From contig JAAZVP010000005.1 in the NCBI GenBank assembly GCA_018623495.1, positions 1,218 through 65,217 of the forward strand: a DNA stretch of 64,000 nucleotides, given 5' to 3'. The notes under the pieces were generated by a model. It did not search any database, was not told the origin of the DNA, and worked only from the letters and a program-made list of their open reading frames with translations. This document shows positions 1,978-64,000 of this stretch, piece after piece. The stretch's first letter is position 1. Each line of letters opens with the position of its first letter. The position numbers and the translations under genes were made by a program. The stretch is from Halothiobacillus sp. (GTDB lineage Bacteria > Pseudomonadota > Gammaproteobacteria > JAAZVP01).

Positions 1978-2514
1978 ATGAATGCCGACGAGCCCGACAC
2001 CGACAGCGACCTGTTCCGCGACGCCATCGGCGAGGTTCGCCCGCTGGCCCGCGAGCGCCACTACACCCCGCCGCCGAAACCCTCCGCGCGCCCGCGCATG
2101 CGCGAGCAGGACGAGGCCGAGGCCGTGCGCGACATGCTCAGCGACGACTTCGATCCCGGCACGGTGGACTACGGCGACTACCTCTTCCACGCCCTCCCGG
2201 GCGTGAAGAAGAGCCTGCTGCGCCAGCTGCGCCGCGGCAACCTGCCCATCGACGGCGACCTGGACCTCCACGGGATGATCCGGCGCGAGGCCCGCCAGGC
2301 CGTCAGCGAGTTCCTGCGCGAGGCCCGCGACCACCGGGCCCGCTGCGTCAAGATCATCCACGGCAAGGGCAACCGCTCGGCCGGCCAGGGGCCGGTGCTC
2401 AAGAACATGGTCAACCGCTGGCTGGTCCAGCGCGACGACGTCCTCGCCTTCTGCTCGGCCACGCCCGACGACGGCGACATCGGCGCCGTCTACGTGCTGC
2501 TCCGGCGGGGCTGA
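1978..2514 (+). CDS. Smr-domain protein (SmrA/YfcN-like DNA endonuclease)
   Basis: The C-terminal [22 protein letters not shown]...KIIHGKG motif is typical of the Smr/MutS2 C-terminal domain. Confidence 0.8.
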
Positions 2515-2623
2515 TCACCGACCCCGGCGGCCCAGCACCCTGGGGCGCAGGGTGCGGGCGGGCGGTCATGGCCGCCGGGGCACCCCGTGAAGGGCATGCC
2601 GGCCAGGGCGCGGGGTGAGGCCC

Positions 2624-3119
2624 CTACCGCTGCCGCGACTGCGCCTCGAAGGGGAACCGGGCCACCCACATCCGCTCGGTACCGGAGAGCGTGACCGTGG
2701 CGACCCAGTCGGTGCGGCCCGTGGTGCACACGGGGATCACCGCCTGGCCGGCAAACCCTCCGCCGGCGGCCGGCTCCACGCGAAAGCGGTTGATCCCCAT
2801 GTCCATGCCGGTCATCTCGAACTCCACCATCGCCCGCTGGGCCTCGATCCCGCTGCCCGGTGCCGGGCGAATGCGGACCTCGAAGGGCTCCAGCGGCCGG
2901 ACGCCCTCGGAGAACCGCAGCGTGAAGCCGCCGTCCTCGCCGGTGGCCGGACAGGCCCGGCCCAGCGGCTCGCAGCCGGATTCGGCCCGGAGCTCGACCA
3001 CCTCACCGGAGAACGGCTCGTCCGGCTGGCCCAGCAACGCCGGGTTGCGGCTGGCCAGGTAGCCCACCAGGGCGACGGCGAAAAACACCAGTATCATCCA
3101 CCGCGCTTGCTGCATGTTC
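2624..3119 (-). CDS. hypothetical membrane-anchored periplasmic protein
   Basis: Likely start MNMQQARWMILVFFAVALVGYLA (signal anchor), then a Met-rich segment FEMTGMDMG, ~165 aa. The longer track ORF 2624..3637 has a low-complexity N-terminal extension in a different compositional regime. Function unknown; possibly a FixH/Cu-binding-like fold, not verifiable here. Confidence 0.45.
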
Positions 3120-3122
3120 ATG

Positions 3123-4070
3123 TCAGTCCTCCCAGAACCCGCGAATGGCGGCCACGCCCTGCCCGCCCGCGGCCACGGCGGTGTCGACATCAGCGCCGCC
3201 GAGACCGCCGAGGGCATAGACGGGCATGGCGGCCGCCTCGGCCAGGGCCGCGAATCCGTCCCAGCCCAGCGGCCTGGCACCGGGGTGGCTGGCGGTGGGC
3301 GCCACCGGCGAGACCAGGGCGAAATCCACCCCCAGCCGGGCAGCGCGTTCCAGCTCGCCGCGGTCGTGGCAGGCGGCCGAGACCCAGGCCAGGCCCTCGG
3401 GACGGGTCTCCCGGGCGGCCAGCCGGGCGCCGTCGAGATGCACGCCGTCGAAACCCAGTCGCCGCGCCGTGTCCGGGTCGCCGTTGAACAGGATGCGGCC
3501 CCCGGCCGCCTGCACGCGGGGGACGGCGATGCCCGCCGCCCACTCCGCGTCGATGCCCCGCGCCAGGCGCAGCTGGACCAGGCGGATGCCGTTGCCCAGG
3601 GCGCGCTCGATGCCGGCCGCCAGGCGCTCGCCGTCACCGTCGAAGTCGCCGGTGACCAGCAGCCGATCGGGCAGCGCGAGCGCGGCGAGGATCGGCCGGT
3701 TGGCCGCCGGCATCGAAAGCTCGCCCAGGGCGTCGCCGGCCACCCAGTCCAGCGGCTGCCCCTCGCGCCCGGTGGCCCGCCCGGTGAAGCCGTCGACCCG
3801 GTAGCAGTGGAGGATCACCCTGCGCTCGGGATAGCCATGGGACACGCGGATGAGGGGCGCGAGGGCACGGGCCTCCAGGCCCACCTCCTCGCGCAGCTCG
3901 CGCACCAGCGCCTCGCGGACCCCCTCGCCCGGTTCCACCTTGCCGCCGGGGAATTCCCAGCGACCGCCCTGGTGGGCCCGGTCGGGACGCCGGGCCACCA
4001 GCACCCGGCCCGCGCCGTCGCGGACCACCGCGACGGCGACGTGGATGGTCTCAGGTGCGGTATTCCGCAT
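3123..4070 (-). CDS. mutT: bifunctional Nudix hydrolase (MutT-like 8-oxo-dGTPase) / thiamine-phosphate synthase-like protein
   Basis: Start MRNTAPETIHVAVAVV opens a Nudix box (GGKVEPGEGVREALVRELREEVG). The C-terminal half resembles a ThiE/TMP-synthase TIM barrel (LVQLRLARG...VYALGGL). The start at 4070 overlaps argJ by 20 nt. The track's MPPPP start was rejected. Confidence 0.75.
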   Translation of the reverse strand: MRNTAPETIHVAVAVVRDGAGRVLVARRPDRAHQGGRWEFPGGKVEPGEGVREALVRELREEVGLEARALAPLIRVSHGYPERRVILHCYRVDGFTGRATGREGQPLDWVAGDALGELSMPAANRPILAALALPDRLLVTGDFDGDGERLAAGIERALGNGIRLVQLRLARGIDAEWAAGIAVPRVQAAGGRILFNGDPDTARRLGFDGVHLDGARLAARETRPEGLAWVSAACHDRGELERAARLGVDFALVSPVAPTASHPGARPLGWDGFAALAEAAAMPVYALGGLGGADVDTAVAAGGQGVAAIRGFWED

Positions 4071-56176: not shown

Positions 56177-57184
56177 ATGACCGTCAAGATCGGCATCAAC
56201 GGCTTCGGCCGCATGGGCCGCCTGGGCTTCCGGGCCGGCTGGGACCATCCCGCCTTCGACGTCATCCACGTCAACGAGACCAGCGGGGACGCGGCCACCG
56301 CCGCCCACCTGCTGGAGTTCGACTCGGTCCACGGCCGCTGGCCGCGGATGATCGAGGCGGACAGCGCGGGCTTCTCCGTCGAGGGCCGCCACGTGGGCTT
56401 CTCGAGCTTTGCCACGCCCGCGGAGATCCCCTGGGCGGAACGGGGCGTGGAGATCGTGGTGGAGGCCTCCGGCGCCTTCGTCACCCCCGCGACCCTGGCC
56501 GGCCACTTCGAGCGCGGCGCGCGCAAGGTGGTGGTGGCCGCACCGGTCAGGGAAGACGCGCTCAACATCGTCATGGGGGTCAACGACCACCTCTACGACC
56601 CGGCGCGCCACGACCTGGTCACCGCTGCCTCCTGCACCACCAACTGCCTGGCACCGGTGGTGGCGGCCCTCAAGGACACCGTGGGCATCGAGCGGGGCAC
56701 CATGACCACGCTGCACGACGTCACCAACACCCAGCGCATCGTCGACAAGCCCCACAAGGACCTGCGCCGGGCCCGCTCGGCCAGCGAGTCGCTGATCCCC
56801 ACCACCACCGGCTCGGCGCGGGCCATCGGCAGGATCTTCCCCGAGCTCGACGGCCGGCTGAACGGCCTGGCCGTCCGGGTGCCGCTGCAGAACGCCTCGC
56901 TCACCGACTTCGTCTTCCAGGCCCCGCGGCCGGTGACCGCCGAGGCGGTCAACGCCCACCTGCGCGCGGCGGCCGAGGGGCCGCTCGCCGGCATCCTGGG
57001 CTTCGAGACCCGGCCGCTGGTCTCGGTGGACTACCGCGACGACCCCCGCTCGGGGATCGTGGACGCCCCCTCCACCATGATCATCGACGACCGGCTGGTG
57101 AAGGTGCTGGCCTGGTACGACAACGAGTGGGGCTATGCCAACCGGCTGATGGAGCTCACGGCCAAGGTGGCGCAAGCCCTCTGA
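56177..57184 (+). CDS. glyceraldehyde-3-phosphate dehydrogenase, divergent ArsJ-associated type
   Basis: 335 aa with [10 protein letters not shown] and the catalytic SCTTNCLAP. It is a divergent GAPDH inside the ars cluster. Confidence 0.8.
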
Positions 57185-57237
57185 CCCGGCACCCGGCACC
57201 GGGGGCGAGAGCCTCCGCCTCGACCGGCGGCCCGGGG

Positions 57238-57828
57238 TCAGCCGGGGAGGTCGGCCGGTTCGGCACAGCGATCGAGATGCGCGCGGAAGGCCTCGAAAGC
57301 GGCCTCGGCGGCCGCCGCGGCGGGGGCATGGTCGGCCGGGCCGCAGAGGCCGTCGGCAAGGTCCCAGAAGGCGCGCCAGTGCCGGCCCACGCCGTCGCCG
57401 GCAAAGAAGCGCACGGGCGTGTCCTCGCCCAGCACCCGGCGCACGTGGCGGGCGATCATCGCCCCGCCGAAGCGCGATCCCTCGAGCACGTAGAGCGCCC
57501 CCACCAGCCCGGCGGGGGTCGCCAGGCCCGGTGTGCGGATGCCGCTGTCGTCGCTCGGCTCACGCCCCAGGGCGGCCAGGTCGGCCCGCAGGTCGGCGAC
57601 CCGGCGGGTGAAGCCGTACCCGGGCGCCAGGGCGTCGATGGCCCCGGCGACCTCGGCCTCCAGCCGAGCCTGCGGGGCGTGCAGCGCGGCCAGGGCGCGG
57701 CCGTAGGCGGCCTCGTCCAGCGCGTCGGTCACCAGGGGCGCGAGCAGCGCATGGTGGTCCAGCGCCTCGTGGGCCGGGGCCGTCGCCGCTCGCAGGTGGC
57801 GGGCCAGGGGGGATTCTCCGGGTCTCAT
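57238..57828 (-). CDS. heme oxygenase (BphO-like, biliverdin-producing)
   Basis: The N-terminal LARHLRAATAPAHEALDHHALLAPL region is the heme oxygenase proximal-His motif. Its start overlaps the phytochrome stop (ATGA). Confidence 0.75.
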   Translation of the reverse strand: MRPGESPLARHLRAATAPAHEALDHHALLAPLVTDALDEAAYGRALAALHAPQARLEAEVAGAIDALAPGYGFTRRVADLRADLAALGREPSDDSGIRTPGLATPAGLVGALYVLEGSRFGGAMIARHVRRVLGEDTPVRFFAGDGVGRHWRAFWDLADGLCGPADHAPAAAAAEAAFEAFRAHLDRCAEPADLPG

Positions 57829-59165
57829 GGGCGCATTTCCCGTTTCAGCAGATCACGCAGGCGCAGCAGCTTGAGGCGAGCCTCGGTGGGCCAGGGGCGG
57901 CTGTGGCCGAAACGCTGCTCCACCCATTTCTCGAAGGAACGCCGGGGGGCGATCCCCAGCCGCCCGTCATGATACTCCACCGGCTTGTCCGGGTTGCCGC
58001 CCCAGGCCACCTCGTAGACCTGCTCGCCGCGGTGGAGATAGATGCGTGCCCCGTCCGGGGCACCGGGCGTGCCGAGCTCGACGGCCGCCACCCCCGCCAT
58101 GGCCGACAGCCCCAGCCCGTCGACGTGGCGATTCAGCTGATCGGTGGCCAGCACCAGTTCCGGGTGTTCGCCGAACCAGCGGTCCAGGGCGCGAACGGAA
58201 TCGTCGTCCACCTCGCTGCCCACGCGGTGGATGCGGTCGCCGGTGCAGAGCACGGCGCCGTCGGCATCGAAGAGCTCGGCCAGCCGCGCACCGATCTCGC
58301 CCCAGGCCTCCCCCAGGTCGCCCGCCCGGTGCAGCCCCTGGCGGATTTCGTCGAACTGCCGGTCGAGGCCGTCGAGCATCTCCATGCGCTCGCGGGTCTG
58401 CCAGTCGCGCAGCTCGAGGTTGAAGAACCCGGCGAGGTGACTGACGCGCTGCAGGAGCGCGGTGGGCAGCCGCCGGGGCCGCAGGCCGTGACAGGCCACC
58501 AGCGCCACCAGCTCGTTGCCGATGACGATGGGCAACGACAACGAGGCCCGCAACCCCATGTTCTGCATGTAGACCTTGTGCACCGGCGAGACGCTGCGCA
58601 GGTCGGTATGGGCCAGGTCGGGCGGCCCCTCGTCCACGCCCAGCACCGGCACGTCCTCGGCGCGGCAGTCGGAGATGGTCCGCCAGGGGTTTTCCACGTA
58701 GAGGCGACGGGCGATCATGGGGATGTCGCTGGCGGGGAAACGCAGGCCCAGGTAGCTCCCGGTGGCCGCCTCGCCCCGCGACTCGGCGAGCACGGTGCCG
58801 TCACCGCCCTCCACGAACTGGTAGTACATCACCCGGTCGAAACCGGTGAGCTCGCGGACGCGCTCCACCAGCGCCTGGCGGCGCTCGGCCAGGTCCGCGG
58901 CATCACCCAGGGCCCGGTACTCCCCCGCCGACCAGCGCTCCACGCCCTCCGTGGCCGCCAGGATCTCGATCGTGAAGCCCCCGTCCCGCGCCCGGCACGC
59001 CACCAGTTCGACGTCACCGTGACGGCCTTCCAGGGCCGTTTCCAGCACCAGCCGGCTGCCGGGCGGGTCGCCCAGCTCCCGCAGGGGATCGGCGAGCTCG
59101 GCCGGCAGCGGCGCGCCGAGGATCGCACCCGGCTCGTGGGCCAGCCAGTCGGCGAGGTTGGTTGC
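57825..59165 (-). CDS. phytochrome photosensory module (PAS-GAF-PHY), 3' part of CheB-CheR::phytochrome gene; no kinase output domain
   Basis: The GAF signature RELTGFDRVMYYQFVEGGDGTVLAESR...LGLRFPASDIPMIARRLY is followed by a PHY domain ending SFEKWVEQRFGHSRPW. The frame is open up to 59402, but the N-terminal 75 codons are low-complexity and overlap the CheBR frame. Confidence 0.7.
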   Translation of the reverse strand, partial: ATNLADWLAHEPGAILGAPLPAELADPLRELGDPPGSRLVLETALEGRHGDVELVACRARDGGFTIEILAATEGVERWSAGEYRALGDAADLAERRQALVERVRELTGFDRVMYYQFVEGGDGTVLAESRGEAATGSYLGLRFPASDIPMIARRLYVENPWRTISDCRAEDVPVLGVDEGPPDLAHTDLRSVSPVHKVYMQNMGLRASLSLPIVIGNELVALVACHGLRPRRLPTALLQRVSHLAGFFNLELRDWQTRERMEMLDGLDRQFDEIRQGLHRAGDLGEAWGEIGARLAELFDADGAVLCTGDRIHRVGSEVDDDSVRALDRWFGEHPELVLATDQLNRHVDGLGLSAMAGVAAVELGTPGAPDGARIYLHRGEQVYEVAWGGNPDKPVEYHDGRLGIAPRRSFEKWVEQRFGHSRPWPTEARLKLLRLRDLLKREMRP

Positions 59166-60675
59166 CGTCGGTGTCGCAGAGCGCGGCGGTGGCGCCGAAC
59201 CGGGCGGCGAGCGCCTCGAGCAGTTGCTCGAGGCTGTCGGCACGTCGCCGGACCACGCCGCCGCGGGCGGGTGTCGAGGACACCGGCGGCAGGTCGCGGC
59301 TGTCACCGCGCTTGCGGAACAGCCGCTCGCGCCGGTCGGCCACCTCGAACAGCGACTCGCCCTGGCCGATGCCCTCGGATCGCCCGAGAAACAGGTGTCC
59401 ACGCCGGTTCAGGGCGAAATGGAAGCGCTGCAACACCCGCGCCTGGAGCCGGGCGTCGAAATAGATCAGCACGTTGCGGCAGGTGATCAGGTCGGTGCGC
59501 AAAAACGGCGGGTCGTCCACCAGGTTGTGCCGGGCGAACACGATCATGTCGCGCAGGCGCTTGCCCACCTCGTAGTGCCGATCGGCGGGATGGAAATAGC
59601 GCTCGATGCAGTCCGGCGGCAGGGCCTGCAGGGCGGCCGCGGGATACAGGCCGCGCCGGGCGGTATCGAGCGCGTCCTCGTCGATGTCGGTGGCGAACAC
59701 CTGGATGGTCTGGCCCAGGCCCTGCTCGCGCTGGGCCTCGGCGAACAGGATGCCGATGGAGTAGGCCTCCTCGCCGGTGGCGCAGCCGGCCACCCAGACC
59801 CGGATGGAGCCGGCTTCGCCCTTCTCCCGGCAGATGCCGCGGACCGTCTCGGCGAGCGCGTCGAAGGCCTCGGGATCGCGGAAGAAGGCGGTCACCGAGA
59901 TCAGGATGTCGCGGGCCAGGCGGTCGAGCTCCTCGGGGTGTGCCTCGACCCAGTCGGCGTAGCGGCGGACATCGGTATTGCCGGTGGCCACCATCCGCCG
60001 GCGGATCCGCCGCGCCAGGGTGCTGGGCTTGTAGCCCGAGAAGTCGATGTCGCGCCGGCGGCGCACCCGCTCCACCAGGCGCTCCATCAGCTCGGCGGGC
60101 AGTTCGTCCCGCCCGGGGGGCCGCATCCGGGCGAACGCCCCCAGGCGCTGCCCGAGCTCCACCGGGGCGAGGACGTGGTCGGCCACGCCCGCCTCGATGG
60201 CCGACAGCGGCATGCCCGTGTACTTGGCCGAGTCCGGCGCCTGCGCCAGGGTGAGGCCGCCGGCGGCCTGGATGGCACGCAGGCCGGCGGTGCCGTCCGA
60301 GCCGGTCCCCGAGAGCACCACGCCGATGGCCGACTCCCCGGCCTCCGCCGCCAGGGAGATGAAGAACTCGTTGACCGAGGGCTTGGGGACCACCTCGGGA
60401 TCGGCGTTGACCAGGCGGAAGCGGCCCTCGCGGATCAGCGCCTTGGAACGCGCCGGCACCACGTACACCGTGCCCGGCCGCGGGGTGTCGCCGTCGACCA
60501 TCTCCTGCACCGCGAGGGCGGTGTCGCGGGAGAGGATGTCCACCAGCATGCTGCGATGGTCGGGGGAGAGATGCTGGAGGACCACGTAGGCGAGCGGCCA
60601 GTCGGGCTCGAGGGTCCCCACCAGCTTGCCCAGGGCCTCCAGGCCGCCGGCCGAGGCGCCGATGCCCACCACCAT
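59014..60675 (-). CDS. CheB methylesterase-CheR methyltransferase fusion (5' part; frame discontinuity ~59150-59170 into phytochrome frame)
   Basis: Start VMVVGIGASAGGLEAL (ATG at 60675) opens a CheB catalytic domain, followed by a CheR SAM-methyltransferase domain (VWVAGCATGEEAYSIG). The last ~50 codons before the stop at 59014 are low-complexity. Phytochrome PAS homology continues in the +1 frame. Confidence 0.7.
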   Translation of the reverse strand: MVVGIGASAGGLEALGKLVGTLEPDWPLAYVVLQHLSPDHRSMLVDILSRDTALAVQEMVDGDTPRPGTVYVVPARSKALIREGRFRLVNADPEVVPKPSVNEFFISLAAEAGESAIGVVLSGTGSDGTAGLRAIQAAGGLTLAQAPDSAKYTGMPLSAIEAGVADHVLAPVELGQRLGAFARMRPPGRDELPAELMERLVERVRRRRDIDFSGYKPSTLARRIRRRMVATGNTDVRRYADWVEAHPEELDRLARDILISVTAFFRDPEAFDALAETVRGICREKGEAGSIRVWVAGCATGEEAYSIGILFAEAQREQGLGQTIQVFATDIDEDALDTARRGLYPAAALQALPPDCIERYFHPADRHYEVGKRLRDMIVFARHNLVDDPPFLRTDLITCRNVLIYFDARLQARVLQRFHFALNRRGHLFLGRSEGIGQGESLFEVADRRERLFRKRGDSRDLPPVSSTPARGGVVRRRADSLEQLLEALAARFGATAALCDTDGNQPRRLAGPRAGCDPRRAAAGRARRSPAGAGRPARQPAGAGNGPGRPSR

Positions 60676-60850
60676 CACCGGCCCGTCCGGCGCGTTGTCC
60701 GATTCCGTCTCGCTCAACCCGGCTCCCCCGTGCGTGTTCGCCCGCCCTGCTCCGGATGCCCCTGTCTTTCTATTATGCAAACCCTGTACATGCAAGCGGG
60801 AGCAACCCGGCAAGCCGTGGGGAGGCGGGGTCCCCGGCCCGGGCAAGGCA

Positions 60851-63800
60851 TCAGGAACGGGGGCCGGCGAGCCAGTCCTCGAACGCGCCGGCAGGCAGGG
60901 GCCGGCTGTAGAAATAGCCCTGCCCCAGGGGGCAACCGGCCTGCCGCAGGAAATCGGCGTGGGTGGCCGTCTCCACCCCCTCGGCGATGATCGCCAGCCC
61001 CAGGTTCCGGGCCATGGCGATCACCGCGCGGGTGATGGCGACGTCGGAGGGATCCGCCGGGATGCCGCCGACGAAGGAACGGTCGACCTTGAGCTTGTCG
61101 ATGGGCATGTCCTTGAGCCGCGCCAGCGAGGAGTAGCCGGTACCGAAATCGTCCACTGCCAGGCACACGCCGAGCTCGCGGAAGGCCCGCAGGAGGTGGA
61201 CCACCTGGCTGTCCTGGACGATGCCGGTCTCGGTGACCTCGAGTTCCAGCGCCGTGGCCGGCAGCCCCGTCTCCTCGAGCACCTGCTCCACCACCAGTGC
61301 CAGCGAGCGGTTCTCCAGCTGGCGACCGGCGAGGTTCACCGAGACGTATTCCAGCGACCGGCCCGCGGCCCGCCAGTGCTGCATCTGTCGGCAGGCCTCG
61401 CGCAGGACCCACTCGCCCAGGGGCACGATCAGGCCGGTCTCCTCGGCCAGCGGGATGAACTGGCCCGGGGAGACCAAGCCGCGCCCGGGATCGCGCCAGC
61501 GCACCAGGGCCTCGGCCCCCACGGTCCGGCCGTCGGCGAGATCCACCAGCGGCTGGTAGTGGACCTCGAACTCCCCGCGCTCCAGGGCCCGGCGCATGGC
61601 GCTGTCGAGCAGGACCCGCTCGCGGCTGGTCTCCACCAGCTCGGGGTGGAACAGGCCGAAGGTGTTCCGGCCCCGGTCCTTGGCCTTGAACAGGGCGGCG
61701 TCGGCGTTCTTGAGCAGGGTCTCGGCGGCGAGACCGTCGTTGGGGCTGATGGCGATGCCGATGCTGGCCGTGGTGTAGAGCTCGATCTCGTCCACCTCCA
61801 GCGGCCGGCGCAGGCATGCGAGCAGCTCGCCGGCCACCCGCTCGGCGGCCGCGGGGCCCTCGATGGCCTCGAGCAGCACGGCGAACTCGTCGCCGCTCAC
61901 CCGGGCCACGGTGGCATCCGGGCGCAGCCGCTCGCGGAACCGCGCCGCCACCTGGCGCAGCACGCCGTCGCCCGCCGGGTGGCCGAAGCTGTCGTTGATC
62001 GCCTTGAAGCGGTCGAGGTCGCAGTAGAGCACCGCCACCCGCTCGCCGCTGCAGTGGCCACGCTCCAGGGCATGCTCCAGGCGCTCCTGGAACAGCATCC
62101 GGTTGGGCAGGCCGGTGAGCGGGTCGTGGTGGGCGAGATGGCGCAGCTCGTCCTCGGTCTGCTTGATCCGGCTGATGTCGGAGAAGACGCTGACGTAGTG
62201 GGTCAGGCGCCCGGCGCGGTCGCGCACCGCGCTGATGGTCTGCCACTCGGGGAAGGCCTCGCCGTTGCGCCGCCGGTTCCAGACCTCTCCCTGCCAGTGG
62301 TCGGTGGCGCTCAGCGACGCCCACATCGCCTGGTAGAAGGCCTCGTCGTGGTGGCCCGACCGGAGCATGGACGGCCGGCGCCCCAGGACCTCGGCCTCGG
62401 GGTAACCGGTGATGCGGGTGAAGGCCTCGTTGACGCCGGTGATCCGGCCGTCGACGTCGGTGATCATGATGCCCTCGTCGGTGTTGTCGAACACCGCCGC
62501 GGCCTGCAGCAGGCGGGTCTCGTGCTGCTTGCGCTGGCTGATGTCGCGCACCAGGGCGACGTCCATCGGCTCGCCGTCGAACTCGAAGATCCGTGCACTG
62601 ATCTCCACCGGCAGCCGCTCGCCGGCCCGGTTGCGCAGGGTCGCCTCGAACACCCGCCGACCGCTCTCCTTCAGCCGCCGTCGCTCCTCCGCGCTGCCGA
62701 AGAACCGGGCGTCCTCCGGATCGCTGATGTCCGCCACGGTCATCCCCAGCAGTTCCTCGCGGGAATAGCCCAGCCAACGGCAGGCCACCTCGTTGACCTC
62801 GACGAAGGGAGCGAAACCCGACTCCCGGAACGGGTGCAGGAAGACGGCGTCGCTGATGCCCTCGAACAGCGCCCGGTAGCGGGCCTCGGTGCGCCGGCGC
62901 GCCTCGTCGGCCCGGCGCCGCTCGGTGACGTCCAGGTGGGTGCCGGCCATCCACAGCGGGCGGCCGTCGGCCTGCCACTCGATCACCCGGCCGCGCGCCA
63001 GCATCCAGACCCAGTGCCCATGGGCATGGCGCATGCGCAGCTCGCACTCGTAAACATCGAGTTCGCCGCCAAAATGGCGCTGCAGAAGCGCCTCGGCGCG
63101 CTCCAGGTCCTCGGGATGGCCGAGTTCGCGCCAGGTGGACACGCTCACCGGCTCGAGGGCGTCCGCGGCGTAGCCCAGCAGCGTCTTCCAGCGGTCGTTG
63201 ATGATCAGCTCGCCGGTCTGCACGTTCCACTGCCAGGTGCCGGCCCGGGTGCCGGCGATCACCTGTTCCAGGCGGCGGCGCTCGTCCTCCAGCGCCCGGC
63301 GGGACCGCAGGCGCTCGCTGATGTCGTTGAACACCGCCACCGCGCCGGTCACCTCGCCGCCGGGGGCACGCACGGGGGAGACGAAGACCTCCGCCGGGAA
63401 ACCGCTGCCGTCGGCGCGGTAGAAGCGATCCTCCCAGGCATCCAGCGACTCGCCGGTCCGCATCACCCAGTGGACCGGGCAGGCCCCGCCGTCGTGGGCA
63501 CTGCCGTCGGGCGCCACGTGGATCGTCTCGTGGCTGTTGCGGCCCAGCAGCTCGCACTCGTCGTCGTAGCCCAGCAACGCCAGGGCCCGCGGGTTGAGGA
63601 AGGTGAAGTCGCCGGCGGTGTCGATGCCGAAGACGCCCTCGCCGAGGCTGTCGAGCAGCGTCTGGCCGAACCGCTCGGCCCGGGCCTGCGGGGTGAGATC
63701 GCGCTGGATCGCGACGTAGGCCTCCGGGCGGCCGGAAGCGCCCGGCAGCGGCAGGGCCTTGCACTCGAGCAGGTAGGGGCTGCCGTCCTTGCGGTAGTTG

Positions 63801-64000
63801 ACCACGCACCCGGTGAAGGTCTCGCCCGCCGCCAGGCAGGCCCGCATCCGGTCGAGTTCGGCGCGGTCGGTACCCGGCCCCTGGAACAGGCGGGGACTGG
63901 CACCGATGAGCTCGTCACGCCGGTAGCCGCTCATGCGGCAGAAGGCCTCGTTGACGTAGGTGATCCGGGGTCCGGGAGCCTCCAGCTCCGCGGTCGTGGC
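60851..64000 (-). CDS. multi-PAS sensor diguanylate cyclase/phosphodiesterase (GGDEF variant SGDEF + EAL); N-terminus beyond window
   Basis: More than 1027 aa with several PAS/PAC repeats, then RVSGDEFAVLL (GGDEF domain) and EALVRW...EVTE (EAL domain). The frame stays open to the window end, so the gene is partial. Confidence 0.85.
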   Translation of the reverse strand, partial: ATTAELEAPGPRITYVNEAFCRMSGYRRDELIGASPRLFQGPGTDRAELDRMRACLAAGETFTGCVVNYRKDGSPYLLECKALPLPGASGRPEAYVAIQRDLTPQARAERFGQTLLDSLGEGVFGIDTAGDFTFLNPRALALLGYDDECELLGRNSHETIHVAPDGSAHDGGACPVHWVMRTGESLDAWEDRFYRADGSGFPAEVFVSPVRAPGGEVTGAVAVFNDISERLRSRRALEDERRRLEQVIAGTRAGTWQWNVQTGELIINDRWKTLLGYAADALEPVSVSTWRELGHPEDLERAEALLQRHFGGELDVYECELRMRHAHGHWVWMLARGRVIEWQADGRPLWMAGTHLDVTERRRADEARRRTEARYRALFEGISDAVFLHPFRESGFAPFVEVNEVACRWLGYSREELLGMTVADISDPEDARFFGSAEERRRLKESGRRVFEATLRNRAGERLPVEISARIFEFDGEPMDVALVRDISQRKQHETRLLQAAAVFDNTDEGIMITDVDGRITGVNEAFTRITGYPEAEVLGRRPSMLRSGHHDEAFYQAMWASLSATDHWQGEVWNRRRNGEAFPEWQTISAVRDRAGRLTHYVSVFSDISRIKQTEDELRHLAHHDPLTGLPNRMLFQERLEHALERGHCSGERVAVLYCDLDRFKAINDSFGHPAGDGVLRQVAARFRERLRPDATVARVSGDEFAVLLEAIEGPAAAERVAGELLACLRRPLEVDEIELYTTASIGIAISPNDGLAAETLLKNADAALFKAKDRGRNTFGLFHPELVETSRERVLLDSAMRRALERGEFEVHYQPLVDLADGRTVGAEALVRWRDPGRGLVSPGQFIPLAEETGLIVPLGEWVLREACRQMQHWRAAGRSLEYVSVNLAGRQLENRSLALVVEQVLEETGLPATALELEVTETGIVQDSQVVHLLRAFRELGVCLAVDDFGTGYSSLARLKDMPIDKLKVDRSFVGGIPADPSDVAITRAVIAMARNLGLAIIAEGVETATHADFLRQAGCPLGQGYFYSRPLPAGAFEDWLAGPRS

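Follow-up and report, generated by a model that had tools for sequence, protein, structure and literature searches.

The window, by which we mean the whole 64,000-nt stretch of DNA analyzed, carries a reading-frame switch on its minus strand at position 59160, and this junction is very likely a scar, left by one illegitimate deletion that took ∼3.0–3.1 kb out of a conserved three-gene operon. The first gene of the ancestral operon would have encoded a CheB-CheR-PAS-coiled-coil-PAS-GGDEF-EAL protein (∼1,490 codons), followed by the genes for an output-less PAS_2-GAF-PHY bacteriophytochrome (∼487 codons) and for a heme oxygenase. The breakpoints would lie just past codon ∼513 in the first gene and within codon ∼43 in that of the phytochrome, and the loss would comprise all PAS/GGDEF/EAL domains of the first gene, the gene boundary, and the N-terminal segment of the phytochrome with its conserved Cys and the first PAS strands. 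The rejoined stumps would be one base (+1) out of frame, and the first gene would now be translated as far as the end of a 48-codon nonsense tail, yielding a CheB-CheR-only protein of 567 aa.

The reading frame switches at position 59160

The original prediction placed a frame discontinuity at the CheR/phytochrome boundary. It is real, as judged by third-position GC content (GC3), by homology on either side, and by an identical second assembly. GC3, which is independent of homology, amounts to 0.88–0.95 for the CheBR frame as far as 59161 and to 0.50 thereafter; in the phytochrome frame, it is 0.85–0.95 from 59160 onward. The CheB-CheR ORF (60846..59014, minus strand) is sensible through ...ALCDTDGN, with its Asn codon at 59163–59161. 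Phytochrome-like reading starts one base further on, at NLADWL (Asn codon at 59159–59157). Two more features described in the original prediction were recovered, that is, the degeneration of the CheBR frame before its stop at 59014 (48 nonsense codons after DGN) and the onset of phytochrome-like sequence in the +1 frame at the junction, that frame being junk upstream of NLADWL, back to 59402.

The junction itself reads AAC-C-AAC (59157..59163, minus strand; gacggcaaccaacctcgcc is located at 59169–59151), and the lone C at 59160 sets the two frames one base apart. The left Asn codon encodes the final CheBR-family residue, and the right one the first phytochrome-family residue, which is invariant in an alignment of 13 sequences. 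As the residue following GN is Ile or Val in the relatives of the CheBR-family alignment, the C at 59160 more likely was the third position of the codon preceding Asn in the phytochrome gene. A separate Logan assembly of run SRR11922360 (L001), the reads of which may have been those behind the window's own assembly, is unbroken through the junction and matches positions 56631–62128 of the window (5,498 nt) with 100% identity.

Both flanks are truncated members of known families

The native part of the CheB-CheR gene (59161..60717, minus strand) begins at TTG 60717, the called start, extends to the Asn of ...LCDTDGN, and corresponds to residues 1–513 of a family of ∼1,490 aa, the members of which are annotated in the databases as [quoted passage not shown]. 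CheB_methylest (2e-53), CheR_N, and CheR (3e-53) are recognized by Pfam. The part is 62% identical to residues 4–513 of the family member P0003, the alignment stopping exactly at ...GN, and in an 18-member alignment of the family, the window departs immediately after GN. Thus, the N-terminal CheB methylesterase, CheR_N, and CheR domains typical of CheB-CheR-PAS-GGDEF-EAL proteins are present, and the C-terminal PAS domains, coiled coil, and GGDEF-EAL (or kinase) output are absent after family residue 513. Compared with CheB/CheR fusion proteins that carry PAS and GGDEF-EAL (or histidine-kinase) outputs, the three domains of the window are 57–63% identical and remain colinear 31 residues into the first PAS-like domain; they differ in that PAS, coiled coil, GGDEF, and EAL are replaced by the nonsense tail.

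The gene breaks off in the middle of that PAS-like domain, of which a 31-codon stump (VRRRADSLEQLLEALAARFGATAALCDTDGN; 59161..59253, minus strand) is left. The original prediction had regarded the end of the CheBR frame (...ALAARFGATAALCDTDGN) as the start of a phytochrome PAS domain, which proved to be a misassignment: the last 31 in-frame residues (…RRRADSLEQLLEALAARFGATAALCDTDGN) scored 37.8 bits (E 6e-14) against a profile of the matching CheB-CheR-PAS-GGDEF-EAL segment, but 0.3 bits against that of the phytochrome-family N-terminus. Weak MAFFT and phmmer extensions into this stretch reflect, according to the profile test, generic PAS-to-PAS similarity. Beyond GN, the relatives read I/V-x-H-x-x-G-x-V-x-R-F-L-x-F-P, which the window lacks. 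What follows instead (59014..59160, minus strand) is the phytochrome PAS region read in the wrong frame, that is, 48 nonsense codons (QPRRLAGPRAGCDPRR...; tail peptide QPRRLAGPRAGCDPR...) and the TGA at 59016–59014, and no homologues of these codons were found in the 18-member family alignment. They form the C-terminus of the called 567-aa product (P0001).

On the other side of the junction lies a headless bacteriophytochrome remnant (57825..59159, minus strand), comprising the C-terminal part of PAS_2, GAF, and PHY, without an output domain, and corresponding to residues ∼44–487 of a stand-alone PAS_2-GAF-PHY family with at least 116 homologues of ∼487 aa. The first homologous residues are NLADWL, at about residue 44 of that family, and identity to its 487-aa proteins is 45–53%. 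GAF (3.5e-11) and PHY (5e-24) are recognized by Pfam, and the remnant matches solved bacteriophytochromes (E 1.8e-48). In it, all 63 columns with a conservation of at least 98% are unchanged. For PAS_2, however, no match was obtained at E ≤ 10 even after frame correction, whereas the relatives match from model position 1. The first ∼43 residues are missing, including the conserved chromophore Cys, and the motif C-E-x-E-x-L-H-x-S-G-x-I-Q-x-H-G is absent from all three frames. In bacteriophytochromes, the N-terminal segment bears the site of covalent chromophore attachment (PMC6433076).

The gene callers placed the start of the remnant at GTG 59048 (407 aa; P0121), and 59003 and 58943 are further possible starts. 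Any product initiated at one of these positions would lack the chromophore-attachment segment and most of PAS_2 and, for this reason, is very probably not a working photoreceptor. The remnant retains the GAF and PHY domains and the adjacent, biliverdin-supplying heme oxygenase gene of a functional bacteriophytochrome; the Cys-bearing N-terminal segment followed by PAS_2 was not found. In comparison with the PAS-GAF-PHY core of bacteriophytochromes, it is without the ∼43 N-terminal residues, the Cys, the first PAS_2 strands, and a native start codon. Its nearest known group is a subfamily of output-less phytochromes of ∼487 aa adjoining CheBR-GGDEF-EAL genes, with which it shares all conserved GAF/PHY columns, the end after PHY, and a heme oxygenase gene directly downstream. 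Pairing of a bacteriophytochrome gene with one for heme oxygenase is known as the bphO-bphP type of arrangement. The bphO-like gene of the window (57238..57828, minus strand; 196 aa; Pfam Heme_oxygenase, 2.1e-09) is intact, with a 4-nt overlap between its ATG and the stop of the phytochrome remnant.

Relatives carry an intact operon

The locus was compared with 51 colinear loci of beta- and gammaproteobacteria, in which a CheBR-PAS-GGDEF-EAL gene is followed by a phytochrome and then a heme oxygenase gene. All 51 carry full-length genes, and the stretch that corresponds to the one missing from the window measures 3,073 nt in the median (range 2,398–3,249, n = 40). In L004/L005, for example, a 1,489-aa gene precedes that for a 486-aa phytochrome with an 8-nt overlap, and heme oxygenase follows; start/stop overlaps of this kind refer to those relatives' loci that were checked. 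A 196-aa gene occupies the heme oxygenase position in the relatives as it does in the window, in the same gene order. Independent lesions in the same operon were seen in other lineages (L070, L065).

The comparison bears on several parts of the original prediction. Its premise of one continuous CheBR-phytochrome gene does not hold, as the relatives have two separate genes, with ∼3.07 kb between the points that abut in the window. A frame-corrected CheBR-phytochrome fusion was also searched against 5.8 billion proteins and no homologue spanning both halves was found, the matches being confined to the CheBR side (best non-self match 688 bits, 53% coverage). The term “single-nucleotide” fits the offset between the two frames, which is one base; it does not fit the lesion, which is no one-base indel, since ∼3 kb of the relatives' sequence is missing. 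A simple frameshift pseudogene caused by such an indel was therefore rejected: correction restores no protein colinear with full-length homologues, ∼3,073 nt still being missing. Among the three explanations originally offered, a recent inactivating lesion or pseudogene comes closest to the evidence, except that what was broken was not a fusion gene.

Upstream of the CheB-CheR ORF, a multi-PAS-GGDEF-EAL gene (60851..64000, minus strand) remains open to base 64000 and runs past the window end. It was considered as the translocated missing part and rejected; identity to the last PAS-GGDEF-EAL of P0003 is 43%, versus 62% for the CheBR part, its PAS architecture differs, and it has no NEELQATNEEL coiled-coil region. 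It is a paralogue instead. When the window was searched by tblastn for the middle region of the family and for N-termini of phytochromes, nothing was returned beyond weak PAS matches in this paralogue. The missing segments are thus absent elsewhere in the window, which argues for a deletion rather than a local rearrangement.

Because no close relative was available, we infer the ancestral state of the window's lineage from distant ones (nearest homologues 63% identical for CheBR and 53% for the phytochrome) rather than from direct observation. A scan of GTDB genomes for closer relatives gave a best match of 50% identity, and an exact-match scan of JGI metagenomes with the left flank gave no matches. 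The lesion was probably one event, and it looks recent, because neither remnant shows further decay. Conservation of GAF-PHY could alternatively reflect ongoing selection on a shortened product.

Alternative origins of the junction

The same junction might have arisen in two steps, which we regard as unlikely. A deletion via the common CAAC would have created an in-frame CheB-CheR-(delta-PAS)-GAF-PHY chimera (...DGN-LADWL...), the frame of which would then have been broken by tandem duplication of 4 nt (CAAC/AACC) or by a sequencing error of equal length. The junction does have a two-copy AACC form (AACCAACC), and a single copy would give GAC GGC AAC CTC GCC, that is, D-G-N-L-A in frame. In addition, an Asn codon is located at the breakpoint in both parent families, the GAF-PHY part is undegraded, and the duplicated CAAC permits a deletion followed by a 4-nt duplication. 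However, two events are needed where one suffices, no natural CheBR-phytochrome fusion family was found, and the N-terminus and Cys of the phytochrome would be missing from the chimera as well; the sequencing-error variant is also at odds with the identical second assembly. In-register recombination between the two PAS-coding segments was rejected as well, nine phytochrome residues (the x-V-x-H-x-S-x region) being missing relative to an in-register join.

It is about as improbable, if not slightly more so, that products of the deletion are still live. Translation of the GAF-PHY remnant could begin at an internal start or resume by reinitiation once the CheBR stop is passed, and its product could sense bilin without the Cys and with a truncated PAS domain, or could act as a partner to the shortened CheB-CheR protein; alternatively, an in-frame CheB-CheR-phytochrome chimera could have existed transiently. 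If either is true, the locus would show, in nature, how a deletion gives rise to a new domain architecture.

Still less probable are two intact, working genes, the third of the original explanations: one for a short CheB-CheR protein and one for a phytochrome whose short N-terminus is natural and whose start is unusual. The gene callers annotate products of 567 and 407 aa, conserved columns are intact in both parts, and the heme oxygenase gene is intact with its 4-nt start/stop overlap with the remnant retained. Against this stand the low GC3 (0.50) and lack of homologues of the last 48 codons of the 567-aa product, the end of the CheBR part within a PAS-like domain, the loss of the Cys-bearing segment and of a detectable PAS_2 from the phytochrome, and the full-length genes in 51/51 colinear relatives. 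Moreover, no well-placed ribosome-binding site (Shine-Dalgarno sequence) was found for the candidate start codons after the junction.

An assembly or sequencing artefact, be it a collapsed or chimeric join or the one-base error that the original prediction had listed as an option, is very improbable. In its favor is that the window's genome is absent from the reference genomes searched. Against it, the Logan assembly is identical over 5.5 kb with the junction in mid-contig; CAAC, the only sequence common to both sides, is far too short for an assembler to join; there is neither a homopolymer at the site nor a composition break around it; and a one-base correction restores no known protein. Programmed +1 ribosomal frameshifting into a CheB-CheR-phytochrome fusion (junction-spanning product ...CDTDGNLADWLAHEPG..., i.e., …CDTDGN-LADWLAHEPG…) can practically be dismissed. 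All that speaks for it is a downstream frame that is +1 and free of decay; by-hand inspection of GGC AAC CAA CCT revealed neither a slippery or re-pairing site nor a slow or stop codon, and the arrangement is conserved nowhere, the relatives' genes being separate with 3 kb between the corresponding points.

Meaning of the locus

Pseudogenes and gene remnants generated by deletion are well known from bacteria. The deletion proposed here resembles them in being internal to an operon, in leaving truncated, out-of-frame stumps, and in having consumed no microhomology at the join. Nothing about it is unusual except that both stumps are joined within PAS-type segments, which is why the locus resembles a simple frameshift within one domain. 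It is ordinary gene decay, and its importance lies mainly in annotation, where the two ORFs should be marked as what is left after one ∼3-kb deletion, being neither a frameshifted fusion gene nor two normal genes.

The intact operon of the relatives, a by-product of the junction analysis, is conserved in at least 51 loci, Azonexus hydrophilus and Vreelandella venusta being among the organisms that have it, and is more interesting than the scar. Searches of the literature turned up no description of a CheBR-GGDEF-EAL/phytochrome/heme oxygenase operon. Its conserved gene order suggests that the phytochrome may act in trans on the c-di-GMP enzyme encoded upstream of it, and the operon merits follow-up.

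Gene layout and the frame switch

On the minus strand, four genes follow one another head to tail across the locus: a multi-PAS-GGDEF-EAL gene (64000..60851, crossing the window end), the CheB-CheR ORF (60846..59014), the GAF-PHY phytochrome frame (open from 59402 to 57825), and a heme oxygenase gene (57828..57238; 196 aa). The first is listed with 1027 aa from ATG 63934; its frame is open to base 64000 and reads mid-PAS sequence near the window end (...ITYVNEAFCRMSGYRRDELIG), so the gene extends past the window. It ends ∼130 nt before the gene callers' start of CheB-CheR (TTG 60717), which yields a 567-aa product (P0001). Very long ORFs of 527, 610, and 1031 aa (57903-59486 and 59158-60990, plus strand; 60714-63809, minus strand) overlap the real genes on the opposite strand or in another frame and are rich in Arg, Pro, Gly, and Ala; they are not taken as genes, being the usual by-product of a GC content of ∼72%.

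In the CheB-CheR frame, the final sensible residue is the Asn of ...LEALAARFGATAALCDTDGN (codon 59163-59161); 48 Arg/Pro/Gly/Ala-rich nonsense codons follow, up to the TGA at 59016-59014. Read one base further on, the sequence is nonsense from 59402 until NLADWLAHEPG (Asn codon 59159-59157), where it turns phytochrome-like. At this GC content, GC at third codon positions (GC3) can mark the true coding frame independently of homology. GC3 of the CheB-CheR frame is 0.88-0.95 down to 59161 and 0.50 thereafter; that of the phytochrome frame is 0.85-0.95 from 59160 onward. Thus, the frame discontinuity is real and lies where the original prediction had placed it, which had also correctly described the degeneration of the CheBR frame before its stop and the junk preceding the phytochrome-like stretch in the +1 frame.

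The 567-aa product, including its nonsense tail, is also present on a Logan contig from run SRR11922360 (L001), which is 100% identical to window positions 56631-62128 and carries the junction mid-contig. The site contains no homopolymer, and only four bases, CAAC, are common to the two sides, an overlap too short for any assembler to use. Together, the assembled sequences argue strongly, if indirectly, against an artefact of one assembly.

Origin of the two halves

The closest relatives of the left side are CheB-CheR-PAS-GGDEF-EAL proteins of ∼1490 aa, 57-63% identical over the CheB-CheR part. The alignment with one of them, P0003, covers residue 4 to residue 513 and ends exactly at the junction, where P0003 reads LRRRERKIEILLTELARHYGAAVVLCDSNGN and the window VRRRADSLEQLLEALAARFGATAALCDTDGN. 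This block is conserved in 18 family members and followed by I/V-x-H-x-x-G-x-V-x-R-F-L-x-F-P; the window is wholly different after GN. The 31-residue tail preceding the switch, originally read as phytochrome PAS sequence, scored 37.8 bits (E 6e-14) against a profile of the CheBR-family segment and 0.3 bits against one of phytochrome N-termini. These scores, together with the family alignments, identify it as the stump of the first PAS-like domain native to the CheBR family; its faint phytochrome likeness is generic similarity among PAS N-terminal strands. The CheB-CheR part deviates at 3 of 145 conserved columns, which is within the family's range. The first gene would now encode CheB-CheR, the PAS stump, and the 48-residue nonsense tail; it is homologous to CheB/CheR-fusion signalling proteins but without the output domains that define them.

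Relatives of the right side form a large family of stand-alone PAS_2-GAF-PHY proteins (∼487 aa, no output domain, 45-53% identical) with conserved N-termini (M...F-L-x-x-C-E-x-E-x-L-H-x-S-G-x-I-Q-x-H-G-A-L-L-V-x-D-x-x-G-x-V-x-H-x-S-x-N-L-A). The canonical bacteriophytochrome motif is C-E-x-E-P-I-H-x-P-G-x-I-Q-P-H-G; its prolines appear to be replaced in the output-less subfamily (C-E-x-E-x-L-H-x-S-G-x-I-Q-x-H-G; alignment A1, columns 1-45). The window enters the family alignment at the invariant Asn of N-L-A, around residue 44, and the preceding ∼43 residues, including the conserved Cys, were found neither in any of the three frames nor in the rest of the window. Pfam PAS_2 gave no match at E<=10 in the frame-corrected translation; intact relatives match it from model position 1. 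The part that is present deviates at 0 of 63 columns conserved to at least 98%, and at 1 of 88 conserved to at least 95%.

The phytochrome remnant appears to have lost its native start. Three in-frame candidate starts on the minus strand lie downstream of the junction: GTG 59048, the gene callers' choice, has no Shine-Dalgarno sequence; GTG 59003 follows the stop of the CheBR frame by 10 nt, so that reinitiation there is conceivable; and GTG 58943 has GGAGG just 2 nt upstream. A product made from any of them would be without the N-terminal segment, in which bacteriophytochromes carry the covalent chromophore attachment site (PMC6433076), and without most of PAS_2, so a working photoreceptor is unlikely. 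The remnant is homologous to bacteriophytochromes but without their defining Cys-bearing N-terminus and PAS_2.

A probable deletion between two genes

On a contig of a relative (L004), a 1489-aa CheB-CheR-PAS-GGDEF-EAL gene is followed by a 486-aa phytochrome and a heme oxygenase. There the phytochrome start lies 8 nt inside the end of the gene before it; L002, the other contig examined for this, has an overlap of start and stop of 14 nt. The closest phytochrome homologue shows the same order, from the end of an EAL gene to a 196-aa heme oxygenase. Scanning one genome per species yielded 80 loci; with the contig described above included, 51 loci, mostly of Beta- and Gammaproteobacteria, carry the CheBR part, the middle part specific to the family, and the phytochrome in colinear order on a single strand. 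Measured from where codon 513 ends, phytochrome codon 44 lies a median of 3073 nt away in relatives (range 2398-3249, n=40); in the window the two abut.

The junction is very probably the scar of a deletion of ∼3 kb. Lost with it were the first gene's PAS, coiled-coil, GGDEF, and EAL regions, the boundary between the genes, and ∼43 codons at the start of the phytochrome gene; the ends were joined one base out of register. As relatives have Ile or Val after GN, that is, a codon beginning with A or G, the odd C at 59160 more probably belongs to the phytochrome side, as third base of the codon preceding Asn. Both CAAC copies were kept, so no microhomology was consumed, which points to an illegitimate join. 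Neither remnant shows signs of further decay, and a recent event is therefore the simplest reading; continued selection on the shortened products is possible. Pairs of gene remnants left by a deletion, as here, are a well-known kind of lesion. Among the options of the original prediction, a pseudogene came nearest, albeit through loss of ∼3 kb between two genes rather than a one-base slip within one.

In-register recombination between PAS-coding segments was rejected, as nine phytochrome residues are missing compared with such a join. The upstream PAS-GGDEF-EAL gene was likewise rejected as the relocated missing piece: its identity to the last PAS-GGDEF-EAL of P0003 is just 43%, its N-terminal part is built differently, and the NEELQATNEEL coiled coil is lacking.

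A two-step history, in which an in-frame join through CAAC (...DGN-LADW...) was later broken by a 4-nt duplication, is permitted by the sequence but requires two events, and we consider it improbable. That these are two normal genes, the second with a non-canonical start, is very improbable: the tail is nonsense (GC3 0.50), both parts are truncated mid-domain, Cys and PAS_2 are missing, and 51 relatives are full-length. An assembly or sequencing artefact, such as the indel proposed originally, is hardly credible: the second assembly is identical, and changing one base does not yield any known protein. No protein covering both halves of the frame-corrected fusion was found (best non-self match 688 bits, 53% coverage). 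Programmed +1 frameshifting can practically be dismissed, as no frameshift motif is present and the arrangement is not conserved.

The operon in relatives

The complete operon (L004 4539-10961 and the 51 colinear loci within L007-L071; truncated version at window 57238-60717) comprises CheB-CheR-PAS-coiled-coil-PAS-GGDEF-EAL (∼1490 aa), the output-less PAS_2-GAF-PHY protein (∼487 aa), and heme oxygenase, and is found in Azonexus, Vreelandella/Halomonas, Nitrincola, Marinobacterium, Methylomonas, Hydrogenophilus, and others. In a Pseudomonadota MAG (L029, JBFLXA010000009.1), a HisKA-HATPase-receiver end replaces GGDEF-EAL (P0014, 1346 aa), and the output-less phytochrome still follows the CheB-CheR-PAS gene. 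A complete proteobacterial-type operon (CheBR part, middle region, GGDEF-EAL, phytochrome) is also carried by two assemblies labelled Mycobacterium, Mycobacterium sp. Root265 (L064, NZ_LMJA01000022.1) and a MAG labelled Mycobacterium sp. (L051), which could reflect horizontal transfer, mislabelling, or contamination.

In Marinobacter bryozoorum DSM 15401 (L070 5250-7316), ∼240 residues are missing within GGDEF-EAL, where the frame also changes, and the frame changes a second time in the phytochrome, near residue 372-394. In Vreelandella lionensis RHS90 (L065 1315-2827), it changes inside the CheR part. These look like independent lesions of the same operon; either real decay or sequencing error could account for them.

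No published description of this CheBR-GGDEF-EAL/output-less phytochrome/heme oxygenase operon was found in the literature searched. The operon is a more interesting lead than the junction itself: conserved gene order and overlapping reading frames suggest that the phytochrome may act in trans on the c-di-GMP enzyme.
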